From the NCBI GenBank assembly GCA_041488275.1, contig JBGPOY010000002.1, forward strand, positions 11,336 through 75,335: a stretch of DNA of 64,000 nucleotides, given 5' to 3'. Source of the DNA: Candidatus Nanoarchaeia archaeon. GTDB lineage: Archaea; Nanobdellota; Nanobdellia; Woesearchaeales; ARS49. The notes under the pieces are model-generated. The model did not search any database and was not told the origin of the DNA. It saw only the letters and a program-made list of their open reading frames with translations. Each line of letters opens with the position of its first letter. Position 1 is the stretch's first letter. Below, piece after piece: positions 1-9,676 of the stretch. Both the position numbers and the translations under genes were made by a program.

Positions 1-2
1 CA

Positions 3-623
3 GTCCTGATTGTGGGCGCCGGGCTTGTGGGAGTCGAGCTCGCGGCGGAGTTGGCGGTCCACGGCAAAACAAAGGTGACGCTCGTCAGCAGCGGTCCTAC
101 TCTTTTGGAGCGCAACGAACCGAAATCGCAGCGCTATGCAGAAAAATTCCTACGCGCCCACGGCGTCACGCTCCTGTTCCGCGAGCTCGTGCACGCGAAA
201 GGCAAGGGGTTCATCACCGATTCAAAGAAAAAGCTCAAGGCGGATATGGCCTTCTTCTGCACCGGACTGATACCGAACTCGTCCGTGCTTCCGAAATCGG
301 TGGACGACCACAAGCGCGTCAGAGTCAACGAATTCCTGCAGGTTGAGGGCATGAAGAACGTCTTTGCCCCCGGCGACCTCAACAACGTGGTCGTCGAGAA
401 AACGGCGCAGAACGCCGAAATACAGGCGCGTCTCGCGGTGGACAACATCAAACGTCTGGAACACCGCCGCCCGCTCGTCGCGTATCGACCGAGAAAAACG
501 CCGCTCGTCATCAGTCTCGGACCGCGGGACGGCATTTTCGAAACGCGTTCGTTCGTCATCACGGGATTTATTCCTGCGTTGCTCAAGCGCGTGATTGAGT
601 TTCGGGAAATGAGAAAGTTCTAG
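3..623 (+). CDS. FAD/NAD(P)-dependent pyridine nucleotide-disulfide oxidoreductase (NDH-2-like), C-terminal part; 5' end outside window
   Basis: Frame is open from the window edge. Second Rossmann motif GAGLVGVELAAEL and FAPGD motif are typical of type II NADH dehydrogenase-like flavoproteins. Confidence 0.75.
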   Translation, partial: VLIVGAGLVGVELAAELAVHGKTKVTLVSSGPTLLERNEPKSQRYAEKFLRAHGVTLLFRELVHAKGKGFITDSKKKLKADMAFFCTGLIPNSSVLPKSVDDHKRVRVNEFLQVEGMKNVFAPGDLNNVVVEKTAQNAEIQARLAVDNIKRLEHRRPLVAYRPRKTPLVISLGPRDGIFETRSFVITGFIPALLKRVIEFREMRKF

Positions 624-662
624 TTCAGCAACAAAAGAATCTGCACTCTAGAAATGGATAAC

Positions 663-735
663 GCACCCGTCGACTATTCCGAGACCGCTCGGAAAGCCGC
701 CGGTTGCTAGCAGGTCAGGTTCGAGAACAGCGTGC
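663..735 (-). pseudogene. tRNA-Glu-derived remnant / tRNA-like branched hairpin
   Basis: 73 nt. 5' GCACGCTG vs GCACCTG, and GCGGCTTTCCGAGC vs GCGGCCTTTCGAGCC, of the adjacent tRNA-Glu. The 3' GACGGGTGCG repeats the tRNA 3' end. Contains hairpin TCCGAG-CGGT-CTCGGA. No T-loop or cloverleaf. Confidence 0.35.
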
Positions 736-753
736 ACACTACAACTCACAGAA

Positions 754-828
754 CGCACCCGGCGGGATTTGAACCCGCGTAAGCGGCTCGAAAGGCCGCT
801 ATCCTTGACCGGACTAGACGACAGGTGC
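754..828 (-). tRNA. tRNA-Glu (anticodon UUC)
   Basis: Manual cloverleaf: acceptor GCACCTG/CGGGTGC, anticodon stem GCGGC/GCCGC with loop CTTTCGA, T arm GCGGG-TTCAAAT-CCCGC, discriminator G. No encoded CCA. Confidence 0.9.
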
Positions 829-853
829 AATGATCGTTTGCTTGTGCGCATGG

Positions 854-906
854 TGCGCTCGTCGGTTCTCAGAGACGCCGGTCTCGGGAACCGCCTTCGC
901 TCACGA
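854..906 (-). repeat. tRNA-Gly trailer (TCGTGAGCGAAG) + hairpin + direct repeat of tRNA-Gly 3' end
   Basis: CCGACGAGCGCA at 854-865 matches the tRNA 3' end CCGCCGAGCGCA (907-918) at 11/12. Hairpin CGGTTC..GAGAC-CGGC-GTCTC..GAACCG lies between them. Confidence 0.5.
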
Positions 907-977
907 TGCGCTCGGCGGGAATTGAACCCGCGTCTCAGCCTTGGCAAGGCCGTATTCTACCACTAAACCACGAGCGC
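907..977 (-). tRNA. tRNA-Gly (anticodon GCC)
   Basis: Manual cloverleaf: acceptor GCGCTCG/CGAGCGC, D loop AGTGGTA, anticodon loop TTGCCAA, T arm GCGGG-TTCAATT-CCCGC, discriminator A. Confidence 0.9.
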
Positions 978-1046
978 GAACTTCTGAGTTGTCGAGGAGG
1001 CGTATTTAAAGATATCTGAGAAGGAAAGAAAAAAAGAAAGAAGAGA

Positions 1047-3476
1047 TTACGTCCAGGACGGGTTGTTGGTGTCGAACGGGCAGAAGCAGTCGTTCGACGT
1101 CAGCGTCTGTCGGACGCGTCCGGAGAGCGGTCCGTTGTAAATCCACACGGAGCAGCTCGTTGCCGTCTGCCGCAGGACGCCGTCGTTGCCTCCGATGCAG
1201 CCGACCAAGTTGTCCGCGATGCTGGGCTGTCCCCACGCGGCGCGGGCTTCCTGCGCCATCGTCAGCGTGTACGTCGCGCTCTGGCCGGGAGTTCCCTTCG
1301 GAGCGCAGTCAAAGTAGTTCTGTCCCACTCCGTTGCTGTGCACGACGGAGCACGTTCCTCCCGGGCAGTTCGCCGGGACTCCGGGCGGGCACGGCGAGAC
1401 GCAGGCGCCGTTCGTGCAGCTGAATCCGTTCGGACACACGAGGTTGCACTGTCCGCAGTTGAAGTTCGTGTTCAGCTGCGTTTCACAGCCGTCGCCGAGC
1501 TGGTGGTCGCAGTCGCTGAATCCCGGGTTGCACACGCCGACCGTGCACGCGCCGTTGGAGCACGTGCTCACGCCGTTGAATACAGGGGGGCACGCGTTGT
1601 TGCAGCCGCCGCAATTGTTGAGGTCGGTGAAGAGGTTAATCTTGCACGGCTGTGACTGTCCGCACGTCGCGGAGCCGTACGGGCACGCGATGGGCGTGTG
1701 CTGGCAGCCGGTCTGCCGGTCGCAGCTGTCGGCGGTGTTCGGGTCGTTGTCATTGCACGAAACCGCGGTGTTGAAGCAGCCGTAGGCGGCGTCGCATCCG
1801 TCGCTGGTGCACGCGTTTCCGTCGTCGCACGAGGCTGCGGTGGTGCTGGCGCAGACGCCTGACTGGCACCTGTCGAACGCAGTGCAGGGGCTGCCGTCAT
1901 CGCAGGCAGTGCCGTCGGAGGCAGCGGGGTTGGAGCACTGACCGGTTTGCGGGTCGCACGCGCCTGCCGCATGGCACGCGTCCGTGGACTGGCACACTAC
2001 AGGGGTTCTGCCGGTGCAAACTCCGTTCATCATGACGTCCGATTGCGTGCACGCGTTTCCGTCATTGCACGGCGTTCCGTCCTGAGGAATTATTTCGCAC
2101 GCGTCGCCGACGCCGTTGCCATCAGCGTCTCGCTGGTCGCTGTTCGCAACCGTCGGGCAGTTGTCCTGATTGTCCACGATTCCGTCGCCGTCCGCGTCAG
2201 CGTTGGCGCTGTGATGGCACAGTCCGCTCTGCTGGTCGCAGAGGTCGCTGGTTGACACGTCGCCGTCGTCGCAGTTGACTTGGTTGCTGCCCACGCAGAC
2301 GCCGTTCTGAATGGTGTCTGTTTGAGTGCATGCGCTTCCGTCATTGCAGGCAGAGCCTTCCGCGGGAGCTGCCGGGAAGTGGCTTTCAAGCGCAGCAACG
2401 CGGGCTTCAAGCGAGGCAATGCGCGCGTCCTGGTCCGATTGTCCTGCGCGGTAATCCGCGAGGGATACGAACGTGTCGGTGAGCTGGTCGAATTGGTGTT
2501 GAAGCGCAACGGTGAGCGTTTCGAGCGCGTCAAGCCGTGAGCCGTGGTCGGTCAGGATGGTTTGGAATCCGTCAATGACCAATTGGAATGCGTTGAGCTT
2601 GGCGTCAGACGCGTTTGCCTGCCCGCTGATGTCGACGACATAACCTTGGACTTTGGCGTACTCGTCGTGGTCGCTCTGCGCGTGGCTGCTTTGCGCGGCG
2701 GACGCGTTCGCGAGACCGCTCTGGATGTATTGGTCAAGGTCGCCGAGGCGCGCGTGGTCAATCTGGTGCGCCGAGATGTAGCCGTCAATTTGCGTTTGCA
2801 GCGTGGCGTCGCCGGACAGGCGGGCGGCGGCTTCGTTGTTGAGCATGCCGGTCAGGTCGCTGCGGACGAGGTTAATCATGTCCGTGAGTGCCTGCTTGGC
2901 GGCGTCAATCGAGCCCGCGCGCAACGCGGCTTCCGCCGCCGCTTTGAGGTCAGTGTACGCGTTTGCCGTCGTGAGAGTCGCGGCGTCGCCCGCGTCTGAG
3001 TATTGCCGGGCTGCCGTCAGTGTGCTGGAGTCTCCCGCAGCGCGGGCAGCAGTCTCGGCGTTGAGATTGTTTTGCAAGGTTGCGTCTGCGCTCTGCCGCG
3101 CGGCGCTTTCACTTGCAACGCTGGAATCGGTGTAGGATTTTGCTGAAGAAAGTCCGCTGGTGTCTCCCGCAACTCGCGCGGACGCTTCGTTATTGACATT
3201 CGTCTGGAGTGTGGCGTCGGCTGCCTGTCGGGCGGCGGTTTCCGCGGTCACGCTGTTTTTCGCGGCGGTGAGGTTGCCCTGCAGTCCGATGAGCGGCGGG
3301 TTGCAGTTCGCGATGCACGTCTGCCAGTTTGCCCACGCCGGAATTGCGGAGGGTTCGGCGCCGCACGCGGTGATGCAGTTTTGCCTGCCTTCGAGCGGAG
3401 CGGTGACGAACGTCGCTGCCGAAGCAACGGACGCGAGCAACAGGAATACGACGGCAAGAACGCTGAACTGTTTCAT
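1047..3476 (-). CDS. Large secreted fibrous, Cys-rich surface protein (signal peptide, Ala/Gln-rich fibre repeats, thrombospondin type-3-like Ca-binding repeats, CxDGNxCTxDxC repeats)
   Basis: Start taken at MKQFSVLAVVFLLLASVASAATF (signal-like). Repeats of the form ETAARQAADATLQTN; DADGDGIVDNQDNCPTVANSDQRDADGNGVGDAC; many C-DGN-C-T-D-C units. Confidence 0.8.
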   Translation of the reverse strand: MKQFSVLAVVFLLLASVASAATFVTAPLEGRQNCITACGAEPSAIPAWANWQTCIANCNPPLIGLQGNLTAAKNSVTAETAARQAADATLQTNVNNEASARVAGDTSGLSSAKSYTDSSVASESAARQSADATLQNNLNAETAARAAGDSSTLTAARQYSDAGDAATLTTANAYTDLKAAAEAALRAGSIDAAKQALTDMINLVRSDLTGMLNNEAAARLSGDATLQTQIDGYISAHQIDHARLGDLDQYIQSGLANASAAQSSHAQSDHDEYAKVQGYVVDISGQANASDAKLNAFQLVIDGFQTILTDHGSRLDALETLTVALQHQFDQLTDTFVSLADYRAGQSDQDARIASLEARVAALESHFPAAPAEGSACNDGSACTQTDTIQNGVCVGSNQVNCDDGDVSTSDLCDQQSGLCHHSANADADGDGIVDNQDNCPTVANSDQRDADGNGVGDACEIIPQDGTPCNDGNACTQSDVMMNGVCTGRTPVVCQSTDACHAAGACDPQTGQCSNPAASDGTACDDGSPCTAFDRCQSGVCASTTAASCDDGNACTSDGCDAAYGCFNTAVSCNDNDPNTADSCDRQTGCQHTPIACPYGSATCGQSQPCKINLFTDLNNCGGCNNACPPVFNGVSTCSNGACTVGVCNPGFSDCDHQLGDGCETQLNTNFNCGQCNLVCPNGFSCTNGACVSPCPPGVPANCPGGTCSVVHSNGVGQNYFDCAPKGTPGQSATYTLTMAQEARAAWGQPSIADNLVGCIGGNDGVLRQTATSCSVWIYNGPLSGRVRQTLTSNDCFCPFDTNNPSWT

Positions 3477-3622
3477 CGGACACCCCGCGAGCCGCACCGC
3501 TGCTCGTCAACACACTCTTTCACGACGCTCGTCGATGCGCCCGTCTATAAAAAGATTCACGATTACAAATGCTGTAACGCTCCCCCGCAACGTTTATATA
3601 ATGTCCTCACGAAAAACAGCGT

Positions 3623-3793
3623 ATGACCCTTACGAAGGATGAGAAGGCGTACGTCAAGGCCGTGATTGAGCGGGAATGGAAGCATCTCGCGACCGAAGAA
3701 TCGGTGCGCGAACGCAACAGCCCGCTGGCGTTCTTCGTCACGCAGGAAAACTACGAGCAGTTCGTCAAGGCGCTGCTCAAGAAACTGCAATGA
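3623..3793 (+). CDS. Small hypothetical protein (56 aa), translationally coupled to prefoldin alpha
   Basis: ATG 3623 lies about 25 nt downstream of TATA-like gtttatataat. Stop overlaps the pfdA start (ATGA). Below the ORF-track size cutoff; translated by hand as MTLTKDEKAYVKAVIEREWKHL... Confidence 0.45.
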   Translation: MTLTKDEKAYVKAVIEREWKHLATEESVRERNSPLAFFVTQENYEQFVKALLKKLQ

Positions 3794-4227
3794 CTGACCA
3801 CGCTCACGCAGAGGACAGCAAGGACGCGCAAGCCAAGGCGCAGCGCAAGTACTTGGAGCTGCAGGTGCTGAACCAGAAAATGCAGCAGGTCCAGCAGCAG
3901 ATGGAAGCCCTCGAACAACAGGCAGAAGACGTCGACAAGGTCACGAAGCATTTGGACGAATTGTCCGCGGTGCATCAGGGAACAGAACTGCTTGTGCCTA
4001 TCGCCAACGGCATTTTTCTGAAAGCGTCGCTCAAGGACGCGAAGAATTTGATTGTCAACATCGGCGCGAACACCGCCGTCCCGAAAAGCGTTCCCGACGT
4101 AAAACTGCTCATCGCGACCCAGCTCGAGGAATTGCGGCAATTGCAGAAGGATTTGGCGGGACAGCTCGAGACGCTCACCTCGCACGCGGGCAAGGCTGAG
4201 ACAGAACTTCGCCAACTCGTGAGTTAA
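3790..4227 (+). CDS. pfdA: Prefoldin alpha subunit
   Basis: Coiled coil, beta-hairpin core (LLVPIANGIFLKASLKDAKNLIVNIGANTAVPKS), coiled coil. 145 aa. Sits directly upstream of ftsY, as in many archaea. Confidence 0.85.
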   Translation: MTDHAHAEDSKDAQAKAQRKYLELQVLNQKMQQVQQQMEALEQQAEDVDKVTKHLDELSAVHQGTELLVPIANGIFLKASLKDAKNLIVNIGANTAVPKSVPDVKLLIATQLEELRQLQKDLAGQLETLTSHAGKAETELRQLVS

Positions 4228-4228
4228 G

Positions 4229-5986
4229 ATGTTCAAGTTTCTCAAAGACAAGCTGAAAGGCGCGCTTTCGGCGTTTTCCAAGAAAGTCGAGGAGACGGCG
4301 AAGGAAGAAACGCAGGAAGTTGAAGAAACGTCTGCCGAAGCGCCTGCTTCCGCAACGTCTGAAGCTGCTGAAGAAGTTACTGCGGAGCAACCTGCCGTAC
4401 CATCGGAAAAACCAAGCAAGCTCACAGAACCCGAGGCGCAGGGCGCCGAAGTCGCCGAAGAACTCATTGAGGAACTCGAAAAAGCGAATCCCGAACCCGA
4501 AGAGCCTGCAGACGTTCCCAAAATCACTCTTCCGAAAGAAAAGAAGGGATTTTTCTCGACTATCAAGAAGATGCTGGGAGGCAAGGAAGAATTGCCTCGC
4601 GAAGAAATCACCGCAACTCCCGCCGAGAAGCCGATGTTCGACGAAATCGTGATAGAATCGGCGGACATGCAGGTGGAAGGCTCGCCGCTGCGCAAAGTCG
4701 ACATCCACCAGCACATCGAGGAAGAACGACCTGCTGTTGAGCAGCTGTTCGAACCCATCGAGCCGAAACAGGTGAAGCCCGAGAAGAAACAAGTTGCATC
4801 GGCTGAGGAAATGCATCCCGACAAAGTTAAAGCGAGAATTGTTGGAGAAGGCAAAGACCCAAACACACTAAGAGTTAAAGAATACACTCGCGCACTAAAT
4901 AAGAAGGACACAGAAATGCAGCCGTTGGTAGATTTTGCAGGCCCCAAAGCTGCTAACTTAATCGGAAAGATAAAAGAAGAAGAGATTAAAAAAATTCAAG
5001 AACCTCTCAAAACAAAACAATACCCTCCTATTTCAATCCCTTCTGCAGATACTAAGGCAACTAAACTTAGTGACAAACCAGTAAAGTCCAGCAAACTTGC
5101 CGCTCCCGAGAAAAAAGGATTTTTCTCCCGCCTGAGAGAAGCCGTAACGACGAAGAAAATCACGGCGCAGCAGTTCGAGGAATTGTTCTGGGAGTTTGAA
5201 GTTGCATTATTGGAAAACAACGTCGCGTTGGAAGTCATCGAGAAAATCAAGCAGGACTTGAAGCTCGCGCTCGTCGACCAGCCGATACCGCGCGGCAATG
5301 TCGAAACGACGATTCTCGGCGCGCTGAAGCGCTCGCTCGAGGACTTGTTCACCGCGCCCGAAATCGATTTGCTCCAAGCAGCGAAAACGAAAAAGCCGCT
5401 CATCATTTGTTTTGTCGGCATCAACGGCTCGGGAAAGACGACCACGATTGCGAAAGTCGCTCATTTGTTCAAAACGCACGGTCTTGACGTCGTTCTTGCG
5501 GCTGCGGACACGTTCCGAGCGGCGGCGATTGACCAATTGCAGGAGCACGCGAACCGCTTGCAGGTCAAGCTCATCAAGCACGATTACGGTTCTGACCCGG
5601 CTGCGGTCGCGTTCGACGCCATCAAGCACGCGCAGGCGACCAACAAGGACGTCGTGTTAATCGACACCGCCGGACGGTTGCACTCAAACATCAATCTCGT
5701 CGATGAAATGAAAAAGATTGTCCGCGTCGCCAAGCCCGACCTCACGCTGTTCATCGGAGAGTCCATCACGGGCAACGACTGCGTCGAGCAGGCGAAGCAG
5801 TTCAACGAAGCCGTCGGCATTGACGGCATCGTGCTCTCGAAAGCCGACATCGACGAAAAAGGCGGCGCCGCCATTTCGGTTTCGTACGTCACGAAGAAGC
5901 CGATACTATATCTGGGCGTAGGACAGGAGTACGACGACCTGAAAAAGTTCGATCCTCGGGCGCTGCTCGAAAGCTTGGGCTTGTAG
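4229..5986 (+). CDS. ftsY: Signal recognition particle receptor FtsY with long charged N-terminal extension
   Basis: C-terminal NG domain motifs GINGSGKTTTIAK, DTAGR, SKADID. N-terminal ~290 aa is acidic and Lys-rich. Confidence 0.95.
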   Translation: MFKFLKDKLKGALSAFSKKVEETAKEETQEVEETSAEAPASATSEAAEEVTAEQPAVPSEKPSKLTEPEAQGAEVAEELIEELEKANPEPEEPADVPKITLPKEKKGFFSTIKKMLGGKEELPREEITATPAEKPMFDEIVIESADMQVEGSPLRKVDIHQHIEEERPAVEQLFEPIEPKQVKPEKKQVASAEEMHPDKVKARIVGEGKDPNTLRVKEYTRALNKKDTEMQPLVDFAGPKAANLIGKIKEEEIKKIQEPLKTKQYPPISIPSADTKATKLSDKPVKSSKLAAPEKKGFFSRLREAVTTKKITAQQFEELFWEFEVALLENNVALEVIEKIKQDLKLALVDQPIPRGNVETTILGALKRSLEDLFTAPEIDLLQAAKTKKPLIICFVGINGSGKTTTIAKVAHLFKTHGLDVVLAAADTFRAAAIDQLQEHANRLQVKLIKHDYGSDPAAVAFDAIKHAQATNKDVVLIDTAGRLHSNINLVDEMKKIVRVAKPDLTLFIGESITGNDCVEQAKQFNEAVGIDGIVLSKADIDEKGGAAISVSYVTKKPILYLGVGQEYDDLKKFDPRALLESLGL

Positions 5987-6055
5987 TTTTCTCGTCGGAA
6001 ATCCTCCGGCGGTTCTTTGATAAAACATATAAAGCAGCGGCGCATACGGACGGGT

Positions 6056-9519: not shown

Positions 9520-9602
9520 GCAGGGATGCCGGAGTGGCTAACGGGCACGGCTTAGGACCGTGTGGCTCAGCGCCTTCGCAGGTTCGAATCCTGCTCCCTG
9601 CA
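9520..9602 (+). tRNA. tRNA-Leu (anticodon UAG), class II long variable arm
   Basis: Acceptor GCAGGGA/TCCCTGC, anticodon stem CACGG/CCGTG with loop CTTAGGA, T arm GCAGG-TTCGAAT-CCTGC, discriminator A. Confidence 0.9.
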
Positions 9603-9621
9603 TCGTGAGCGAAGCGAACGA

Positions 9622-9676
9622 GTAGGGACAGGCCCTCCGAGGCGAAGACTCGGAGACTGCCTGCTCCCTGCATCGT
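9622..9676 (+). pseudogene. tRNA-Leu-derived minihelix remnant ending in a 17/17 direct repeat of the tRNA 3' end
   Basis: GTAGGGA..TCCCTGC acceptor-like stem, CAGGC/GCCTG stem, CTCCGAG-GCGAAGA-CTCGGAG stem-loop. CCTGCTCCCTGCATCGT at 9660-9676 equals 9590-9606. Confidence 0.45.

Follow-up and report, generated by a model that had tools for sequence, protein, structure and literature searches.

About one third of the tRNA genes in the genome of a Candidatus Nanoarchaeia archaeon (Woesearchaeales, assembly GCA_041488275.1) carry hairpin units of 35 to 95 bp that contain no genes, and these units are probably miniature, non-autonomous DNA insertion elements of tRNA gene ends that depend on their structure. 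The window analysed here is a stretch of 64,000 nucleotides of this genome (contig JBGPOY010000002.1, positions 11,336 to 75,335 of the forward strand), in which an earlier note, made from the letters alone, had described hairpins and repeated 3' ends behind tRNA-Gly and tRNA-Glu. That finding is real and not ordinary. Among the explanations offered at the time, that of a tiny hairpin element targeting tRNA ends is essentially right: it best fits a genome-wide family with empty sites in a sister species, hairpin variants shared between tRNAs and a mirrored arrangement at the two gene ends. The genome holding the window comprises 917 kb in 13 contigs with 57% GC and 48 tRNAs and is 94% complete. 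Coordinates are those of the window and refer to the minus strand unless marked otherwise; tRNAs in the window were called with ARAGORN and Infernal. For comparison we used the tRNA loci of six congeneric genomes and of a few that are less closely related, the own genome being labelled G000.

Layout and polarity of the hairpin units

When the outermost 12-mer of each tRNA was searched in its own flank, 9 of the 48 tRNAs repeated their 3' end within 120 nt downstream (at least 11 of 12 positions, 0.085 expected) and 5 of the 48 their 5' end upstream (same threshold, 0.064 expected). In the chance control, the 12-mer of each tRNA was searched in the flanks of all other tRNAs; a search on the wrong side of each of the 48 tRNAs gave no repeats. 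Chance was rejected by the cross-tRNA control, and the reservation made in the earlier note, that other tRNA loci might lack the pattern or that chance might suffice, does not hold against an excess that is genome-wide and that this control fails to explain. About 16 units could be delimited in the genome, with repeats of 12 to 22 nt and spacers of 35 to 79 nt. They contain no open reading frames (ORFs), and most of them fold with z between −3 and −7. One of them, a 3' unit with a perfect repeat of 14 nt, belongs to tRNA-Ile(UAU) (C2:8065-8169, minus strand, outside the window), a gene with a canonical intron of 27 nt that ARAGORN missed when run without its intron option.

All units share one layout. 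Going outward from the tRNA, the order is a proximal repeat X, a spacer that varies between units, X' (an inverted and imperfect copy of X), a core hairpin, a second (distal) X and finally the original flank, with the terminator in 3' units and the promoter and leader in 5' units. X consists of the final 12 to 17 nt of the tRNA gene plus 1 to 5 flanking nt, and the spacer opens with a module TCGTGAG..GAACGAG in several units. X' usually carries a mismatch or a one-base bulge 4 to 5 bp from the base of the stem. The core has the form GCT-NGCCGAG-CGNN-CTCGGCN-TTG, with a 7-bp stem, a loop starting with CG, and TTG(T) behind it. The distal X is nearly always exact. In 3' units a T-rich tract lies behind the distal copy, and in 5' units a TATA box stands at its normal distance before it. 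The distal copy therefore occupies the original position of the gene end, with the complete tRNA on its inner side.

The stem varies between units in fully compensated form (CCGAG/CTCGG, CCGAA/TTCGG and CCGAC/GTCGG, and likewise at the outer two base pairs), so that the structure matters, be it for function or for propagation. One core variant can sit on several unrelated tRNAs of the same genome: GCTCACCGAGCGGYCTCGGTGTTTG is found at Val-GAC, Ser-GCU (twice) and Lys-UUU in the own genome, and GGCTCGCCGAA..TTCGGCGCCTGC at Ala-CGC, Glu-UUC and Val-GAC in the sister genome G001. At one and the same tRNA the core can differ from genome to genome; for Lys-UUU it is CACCGAG in the own genome, CGCCGAC in G001 and G005, and GGATC in G002 and G006.

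Units at 5' ends were detected in the own genome at Ser-CGA, Ser-GGA, Ser-UGA, Pro-CGG and Pro-GGG, and in relatives at Trp, Leu-CAG and others. They carry the core in the same outward orientation as the 3' units, that is, antisense to the tRNA. For 12 5' units the likeness to 3' units was significantly higher in the outward reading than in the sense of the transcript (Wilcoxon p = 0.002-0.005). The Ile-UAU 3' unit and the Pro-CGG 5' unit have cores that, in opposite transcript orientation, agree at 22 of 23 positions by our count. The inner arm of the 5' units corresponds to nt 1-13 of the tRNA, D-stem included, in reverse complement, as seen at Ser-CGA and Ser-UGA. The presence of the same element in inverted form at 5' ends therefore favours a process at the DNA level over an RNA signal. 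A signal in RNA should not function when turned into its complement, and a DNA process acting on the strand whose 3' end points out of the gene would yield exactly such symmetry. The 3' units present an acceptor-like stem together with the discriminator base, and the earlier description of a T-arm plus acceptor 3' strand with a hairpin in place of the T loop is an accurate picture of them; in the 5' units the core is inverted.

In the window, tRNA-Gly(GCC) (907-977; ARAGORN, and Infernal with 70.4 bits) is intact and has no encoded CCA. Its final 12 nt, CCGCCGAGCGCA (907-918), form the proximal X of the Gly unit. Behind it lie the left-end module TCGTGAGCGAAG (895-906), the hairpin CGGTTC-C-CGAGAC-CGGC-GTCTC-TGA-GAACCG (863-893) and the distal copy CCGaCGAGCGCA (854-865), which matches the tRNA 3' end at 11 of 12 positions and is followed by CCA only by happenstance. 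The same 12-mer as in the left-end module stands directly 3' of tRNA-Leu(UAG), and related forms occur behind tRNA-Ala(CGC) and behind tRNAs of sister species. The Gly hairpin alone folds weakly as DNA (−8.8 kcal/mol, z = −1.2). The next gene, tRNA-Glu(UUC) (754-828), is likewise called intact and without encoded CCA by both programs, and its proximal X, CGCCGGGTGCGTT (752-764), combines the final 11 nt of the tRNA with 2 nt of the trailer. The Glu unit has a variable left part (704-751), where a sister species shows a shorter stretch of unrelated sequence; this part of the Glu unit includes GCACGC, which is the outer portion of X' and complementary to the acceptor 3' strand. The conserved right part (667-703), orthologous in the sister genome G004 with an identity of 0.88, is made up of the inner X' (CCGGCGGC), the core hairpin TTCCGAG-CGGT-CTCGGAA and a linker, and it runs into the beginning of the distal repeat. 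Here the hairpin folds with −14.1 kcal/mol (z = −3.2). The distal copy CGaCGGGTGCGTT (660-672) matches at 12 of 13 positions and is backed by a T-rich, terminator-like sequence at 628-659. The repeats of both tRNAs were thus confirmed at the positions and with the hairpins first reported, as was the single mismatch that they have in common, C to A at the last base of the T-stem.

A third unit in the window, which the earlier note had missed, belongs to tRNA-Leu(UAG) (9520-9602, plus strand) and spans 9603-9676 on the same strand. Its repeat is perfect over 17 nt, the proximal copy CCTGCTCCCTGCATCGT at 9590-9606 recurring at 9660-9676. Between the copies we found the module TCGTGAGCGAAGCGAACGAG (9603-9622), X' with the sequence TAGGGACAGG (9623-9632) and the core hairpin CTCCGAG-GCGAAGA-CTCGGAG (9635-9655); two folding runs gave z = −4.9 and z = −3.6. 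Modules of the form TCGYGAG..GAACGAG, related to TCGTGAGCGAAG, were also seen behind tRNAs in G001, G002 and G006. This TCGTGAGCGAAG-type sequence constitutes a second conserved module and contains GCGAAGC or GNRA-like mini-hairpins.

A TATA-like box of the archaeal type, TTTAAATA (1003-1010), ends 25 nt upstream of position +1 of tRNA-Gly, and no TATA-like box was found between tRNA-Gly and tRNA-Glu. Judging from its sequence, the box is probably the single promoter for tRNA-Gly, its unit, tRNA-Glu and the Glu unit. An ORF of 816 aa (1047-3497) ends about 70 nt upstream of tRNA-Gly; its relatives in a metagenome scan were only distant, with 29-50% identity over partial segments.

Hairpins of the same kind were also observed away from tRNA ends. 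The core CACCGAG-N4-CTCGGTG stands just upstream of TATA boxes at C4:22560-22630, C4:60570-60640 and C1:57460-57530, all outside the window, and these promoter hairpins are flanked by copies of a promoter-proximal GAAACCT or GAAAGCT. One of them precedes the promoter of tRNA-Pro(UGG). The units are therefore not strictly confined to tRNA ends. In a metagenome-assembled genome labelled Methanosarcinales, the exact core TTGCCGAGCGTTCTCGGCATTG was seen in a hairpin some 130 nt away from a tRNA-Ser(CGA), on a contig of 47% GC (L108:2700-2780); this could be a related unit of another lineage, or the contig may have been mis-binned.

Turnover and concerted change between species

The occupancy of individual tRNAs differs between sister species. 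In G004, tRNA-Gly and tRNA-Glu are only 12 nt apart, which represents an empty site for the Gly unit, and this genome also lacks the units at Leu-UAG, Val-GAC, Arg-CCG and Ile-UAU. G004 carries units at His, Trp and Leu-CAG, tRNAs that have none in the own genome. Three copies of X were found at Gly (G002 and G006), at Leu-UAG (G002) and at Ser-GGA (own genome). As regards the neighbourhood of the first two units, tRNA-Gly and tRNA-Glu are adjacent in the own genome, G003 and G004 and lie 3.2 kb apart in G002 (contig C9); this gap suggests a larger insertion between them.

At every site that varies between species and was examined (about 12, in Lys-UUU, Val-GAC, Glu-UUC, Gln-CUG, Gly-GCC and Ser-CGA), the distal copy has the base of the tRNA end of its own species. 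Lys-UUU occurs with four acceptor-stem variants in five species, and each time the distal copy is identical to the tRNA next to it. G001 and G005 offer the closest comparison at this locus: their flanks are about 97% identical and the unit interiors are identical, and they differ only at tRNA pair 4:69, with the matching base in the distal copy, and in X'. A passive scar would not track the current tRNA in this way.

Origin of the units

We infer that the units are, or recently were, mobile and non-autonomous and that they are recognised by structure and not by target sequence. Gene-less hairpin modules of about 35-95 bp would lodge at tRNA gene ends, and occasionally at promoters, leaving the tRNA unbroken. 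The copy of the tRNA end would be made from the target at or after insertion, either by a long target duplication or by using the tRNA end as a template for the two stem arms, and the work might be done by a replication or repair activity of the host or by a protein provided in trans. Probably the units are transcribed together with the tRNA and cut away during the normal processing of its ends, and would for that reason be tolerated. Arms derived from the target, in combination with concerted change, imply repeated copying from the tRNA gene; re-insertion, gene conversion and template switching are imaginable routes.

Two insertion products can be envisaged. In the first, a target duplication of X plus up to about 10 flanking nt would surround the spacer, X' and core. 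Residual flank similarity, seen in 9 of 41 units as compared with 3.8% in controls, speaks for this product, and the comparison of Ile-UAU with G002 fits a duplication reaching several nt into the flank. In the second, a ready-made block of X', core and X would be placed 1-25 nt beyond the tRNA end. Support for such a block comes from Arg-CCG when compared with its paralogue Arg-GCG, from Gly in G006 compared with G002, and from Ile-UAU compared with G004. Two Ser units of the own genome point in the same direction, since they share 56 nt including the distal repeat and do not share the 10-12 nt behind the proximal one.

Enzymes that could move such units were searched for in the 94%-complete genome. 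There was no match to tyrosine recombinases (PF00589; controls positive, serine recombinases not searched), to Cas1 (PF01867), reverse transcriptase (PF00078) or TnpB-type nuclease (PF07282), or to Y1 (HUH) transposases of the RAYT/IS200 type (PF01797), the control genomes being positive for each of these families as well. The absence of PF00589 would cover a XerA-type recombinase too. A more far-reaching proposal, which we advance tentatively, is that the units are archaeal mobile elements of a new class: a polar hairpin of about 25 nt that is read by its shape, whose two stem arms are both built from the target, copying the tRNA end once inverted and once directly, which needs no dedicated transposase, and whose distal copy is re-copied so often that it changes in concert with the tRNA. 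Template switching at stalled replication forks and single-strand hairpin recombination would be candidates for a transposase-free route.

Several observations weigh against insertion elements as the source of the units. Mobility would have to be assumed with no enzyme match among the families searched. The boundaries of the inserted block are ambiguous in the sequence comparisons, which are split between target duplication and ready-made block. Orthologous units keep their interiors (Lys in G001 and G005; Gln and Glu in the own genome and G004), and such conservation could reflect long-term retention under selection instead of turnover. X' partly tracks the tRNA, which a simple model of an element plus target duplication does not predict. 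Finally, the metagenome scan with the 816-aa neighbour protein returned no close relatives and hence no strain-level empty sites.

An unlikely alternative is that the units are scars of site-specific integration, as the earlier note had considered when it proposed remnants of integrase att sites. Plasmids or viruses bearing an integrase and a tRNA end in their attP site would have integrated and later been mostly deleted, leaving an attP arm (X' plus hairpin) next to the original tRNA end that had been displaced. The order of intact tRNA, foreign DNA, partial tRNA copy and original terminator or promoter is indeed that of attL and attR, and the tandem arrays of X resemble those at integration hot spots. 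Archaeal tyrosine recombinases are known to act at the 3' or the 5' part of tRNA genes (PMC8371274), and tRNA fragments left by integration are well documented (PMC9897764). A further point in favour is found at tRNA-Ser(GGA), outside the window (C3:75619-77467), where an insert of 1.85 kb lies between two copies of the tRNA 3' end; beyond the second copy come a hairpin unit and then a third copy. This insert has a GC content of 49.5%, compared with 57% for the genome, flanking repeats of 14-15 nt and no hairpin at its end. Its ORFs (129, 86 and 220 aa) matched no Pfam or PHROG family and comprise orphan genes and horizontally spread ones: the 220-aa ORF has 236 homologues, the named ones being bacterial hypothetical proteins, with a faint DUF4145 signal and no relative in the PDB. 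It was rejected as a recombinase on the grounds of these mostly bacterial hypothetical homologues and the missing PDB relative, and regarded as cargo. Lying between repeats of the same type, the insert indicates that larger foreign DNA uses the same sites.

Beyond the missing recombinase, about 40 units in 8 genomes all measure 35-95 bp without intermediates, the sole exception being the 1.85 kb insert with its hairpin-less end. Displaced copies ought to decay, but here they agree with the current tRNA at each of the roughly 12 variable sites. One hairpin variant occurs on tRNAs with unrelated X, which is beyond the specificity of a single integrase. Scans of viral contigs with exact patterns returned only chance-like matches inside coding sequence. 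The att-site proposal is supported only indirectly, by the repeat-flanked insert; the missing tyrosine recombinase, the uniformly tiny units and the undecayed distal repeats speak against it.

Rather improbable, in our judgement, is a functional role in the transcript, in which the units would be minihelices mimicking the acceptor, or alternative pairings, that guide processing by RNase P or tRNase Z, termination or folding, and selection would keep the match to the tRNA end. This possibility, too, had been raised in the earlier note as a processing or termination structure. It is consistent with the location of the units inside the presumed transcription unit (between TATA box and tRNA at 5' ends, between tRNA and T-tract at 3' ends), with the compensatory changes that keep the stems, with the recurrent defect 4-5 bp from the stem base, and with the tracking of the tRNA across species by X and in part by X'. 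Work by Holzle and co-workers from 2008 and 2012 is said to have identified tRNA-like elements as processing signals in Haloferax, which would speak for it as well. It is disfavoured mainly by the presence of the core in both orientations with respect to transcription, as the loop and linkers in the RNA would be complementary between 5' and 3' units. Moreover, orthologous tRNAs of sister species manage without a unit, the tracking extends to T-stem and trailer nucleotides that would have no partner in the tRNA 5' strand, and units of the same kind flank promoters away from tRNAs.

Decayed tandem duplicates of tRNA genes are a very remote third reading, largely refuted by the anatomy of the 5' units, whose inner arm is an inverted 5' end and not a tRNA 3' end and therefore excludes such copies; nor would duplicates explain a central hairpin common to unrelated tRNAs. 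The earlier note had seen a decayed tRNA-Glu copy at 663-735, and a marginal similarity does exist: this stretch aligned to tRNA-Glu with a score above 495 of 500 interior shuffles (5 of 500 reached the observed score). No tRNA and no cloverleaf was detected in it, either by Infernal at E<=1 or by ARAGORN at moderate thresholds, and in the pseudogene check ARAGORN gave a match only at thresholds that yielded spurious ones too. The orthologue of the Glu unit in G004 lacks the acceptor-like 5' part. The look of a tRNA-Glu arises because X' necessarily resembles the acceptor 5' strand, which explains the likeness better than a decayed copy, and the latter was rejected.

Relation to known systems and significance

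No known family accounted for the units. A search of window positions 1-6000 against Rfam at E<=1 returned only the two tRNAs and antisense artefacts, leaving the first two units unmatched, and a known RNA family was rejected for the Gly and Glu units on this basis. The exact pattern CACCGAG-N4-CTCGGTG was not found in 40 related species; exact patterns cannot keep up with the rapid variation of the family. When viral and genome collections were scanned for patterns, the matches were at chance level only, mostly in GC-rich bacteria and within coding sequence. Literature searches retrieved tRNA fragments from large integrated elements (PMC9897764, PMC8371274), MITEs (miniature inverted-repeat transposable elements) and casposons, and none of the reports describes such units; the family appears to be undescribed in the literature searched.

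Among known systems, elements of the SSV and pNOB8 type integrate into archaeal tRNA genes by tyrosine recombinases and leave partial tRNA copies (PMC8371274, PMC9897764). They share with the units the order of intact tRNA, inserted DNA, direct repeat of the tRNA end and original flank, the use of either the 3' or the 5' end, and tandem arrays at one tRNA. The direct repeat over the tRNA end that brackets foreign DNA in att sites has its counterpart here in the 12-22 nt repeats at about 16 tRNAs. In contrast to those elements, the units are 35-95 bp long and gene-less and reside in a genome without tyrosine recombinase; their repeat is only 12-22 bp long and remains identical to the tRNA in the different species, and many unrelated tRNA sequences have one hairpin variant in common.

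MITEs, repetitive extragenic palindromic sequences and bacterial interspersed mosaic elements (REP/BIME, linked to RAYT transposases), and Rickettsia palindromic elements are, like the units, short, non-coding, hairpin-forming and multi-copy, with species-specific variants and no enzyme of their own. Many related copies per genome without coding capacity, as expected of MITEs, were found here. Unlike MITEs, the units have no terminal inverted repeats beside a short target duplication of fixed length: the sequence after the proximal repeat is not complementary to that before the distal repeat, and the repeats vary from 12 to 22 nt. They differ from REP/BIME by the absence of a GTAG-type motif and of a Y1 transposase, and from both groups by being tied to tRNA gene ends and promoters and by stem arms that consist of target sequence.

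Casposons are Cas1-driven elements found at tRNA 3' ends (PMC4046053). Insertion at this position, an unusually long duplication (14-15 bp) and tandem copies at one site are points of likeness. The genome studied here, however, contains neither Cas1 nor PolB, and the units have no terminal inverted repeats, are about 100 times smaller and use 5' ends too.

Fujishima and co-workers reportedly proposed in 2010 a transposition of archaeal tRNA introns with a bulge-helix-bulge (BHB) motif at non-canonical positions. Such introns have been reviewed (PMC4033280, PMC4090602) and resemble the units as small structured inserts in or at tRNA genes that spread among the tRNAs of one lineage. They differ in that the tRNA here is intact without splicing. 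Our own scanner found no in-register BHB candidate in 14 of 15 units; two weak candidates were seen at Ser-GCU, compared with an out-of-register background of 0.5 per offset. BHB introns were rejected for lack of an in-register motif in these 14 units whose cuts would restore the mature tRNA.

The attC sites of integrons are recombination sites formed by a folded single strand. They have in common with the units an imperfect hairpin that is, or for the units would be, recognised by shape, a polarity that stems from asymmetric defects, and arrays that grow at one site. With neither integron integrase nor cassettes present here, attC sites serve as an analogy only.

New in this analysis are a test of polarity, the finding that the spare tRNA end evolves in concert with the tRNA, and the lack of matches to the standard mobility enzymes that were searched. 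With about one third of the tRNA genes affected in a genome of less than 1 Mb, the units are a major unannotated feature of the tRNA loci of this lineage. On the practical side, they give false partial-tRNA signals and can mislead the prediction of integrated elements from att sites, and they mark sites at which larger foreign DNA enters. They also show that miniature duplications of tRNA gene ends can arise without a recognisable integrase or transposase, and a spare copy of the tRNA end that evolves in concert with the tRNA points to a copying or recombination mechanism. If this mechanism is new, it bears on the origin and spread of small structured inserts, including tRNA introns, in archaea.

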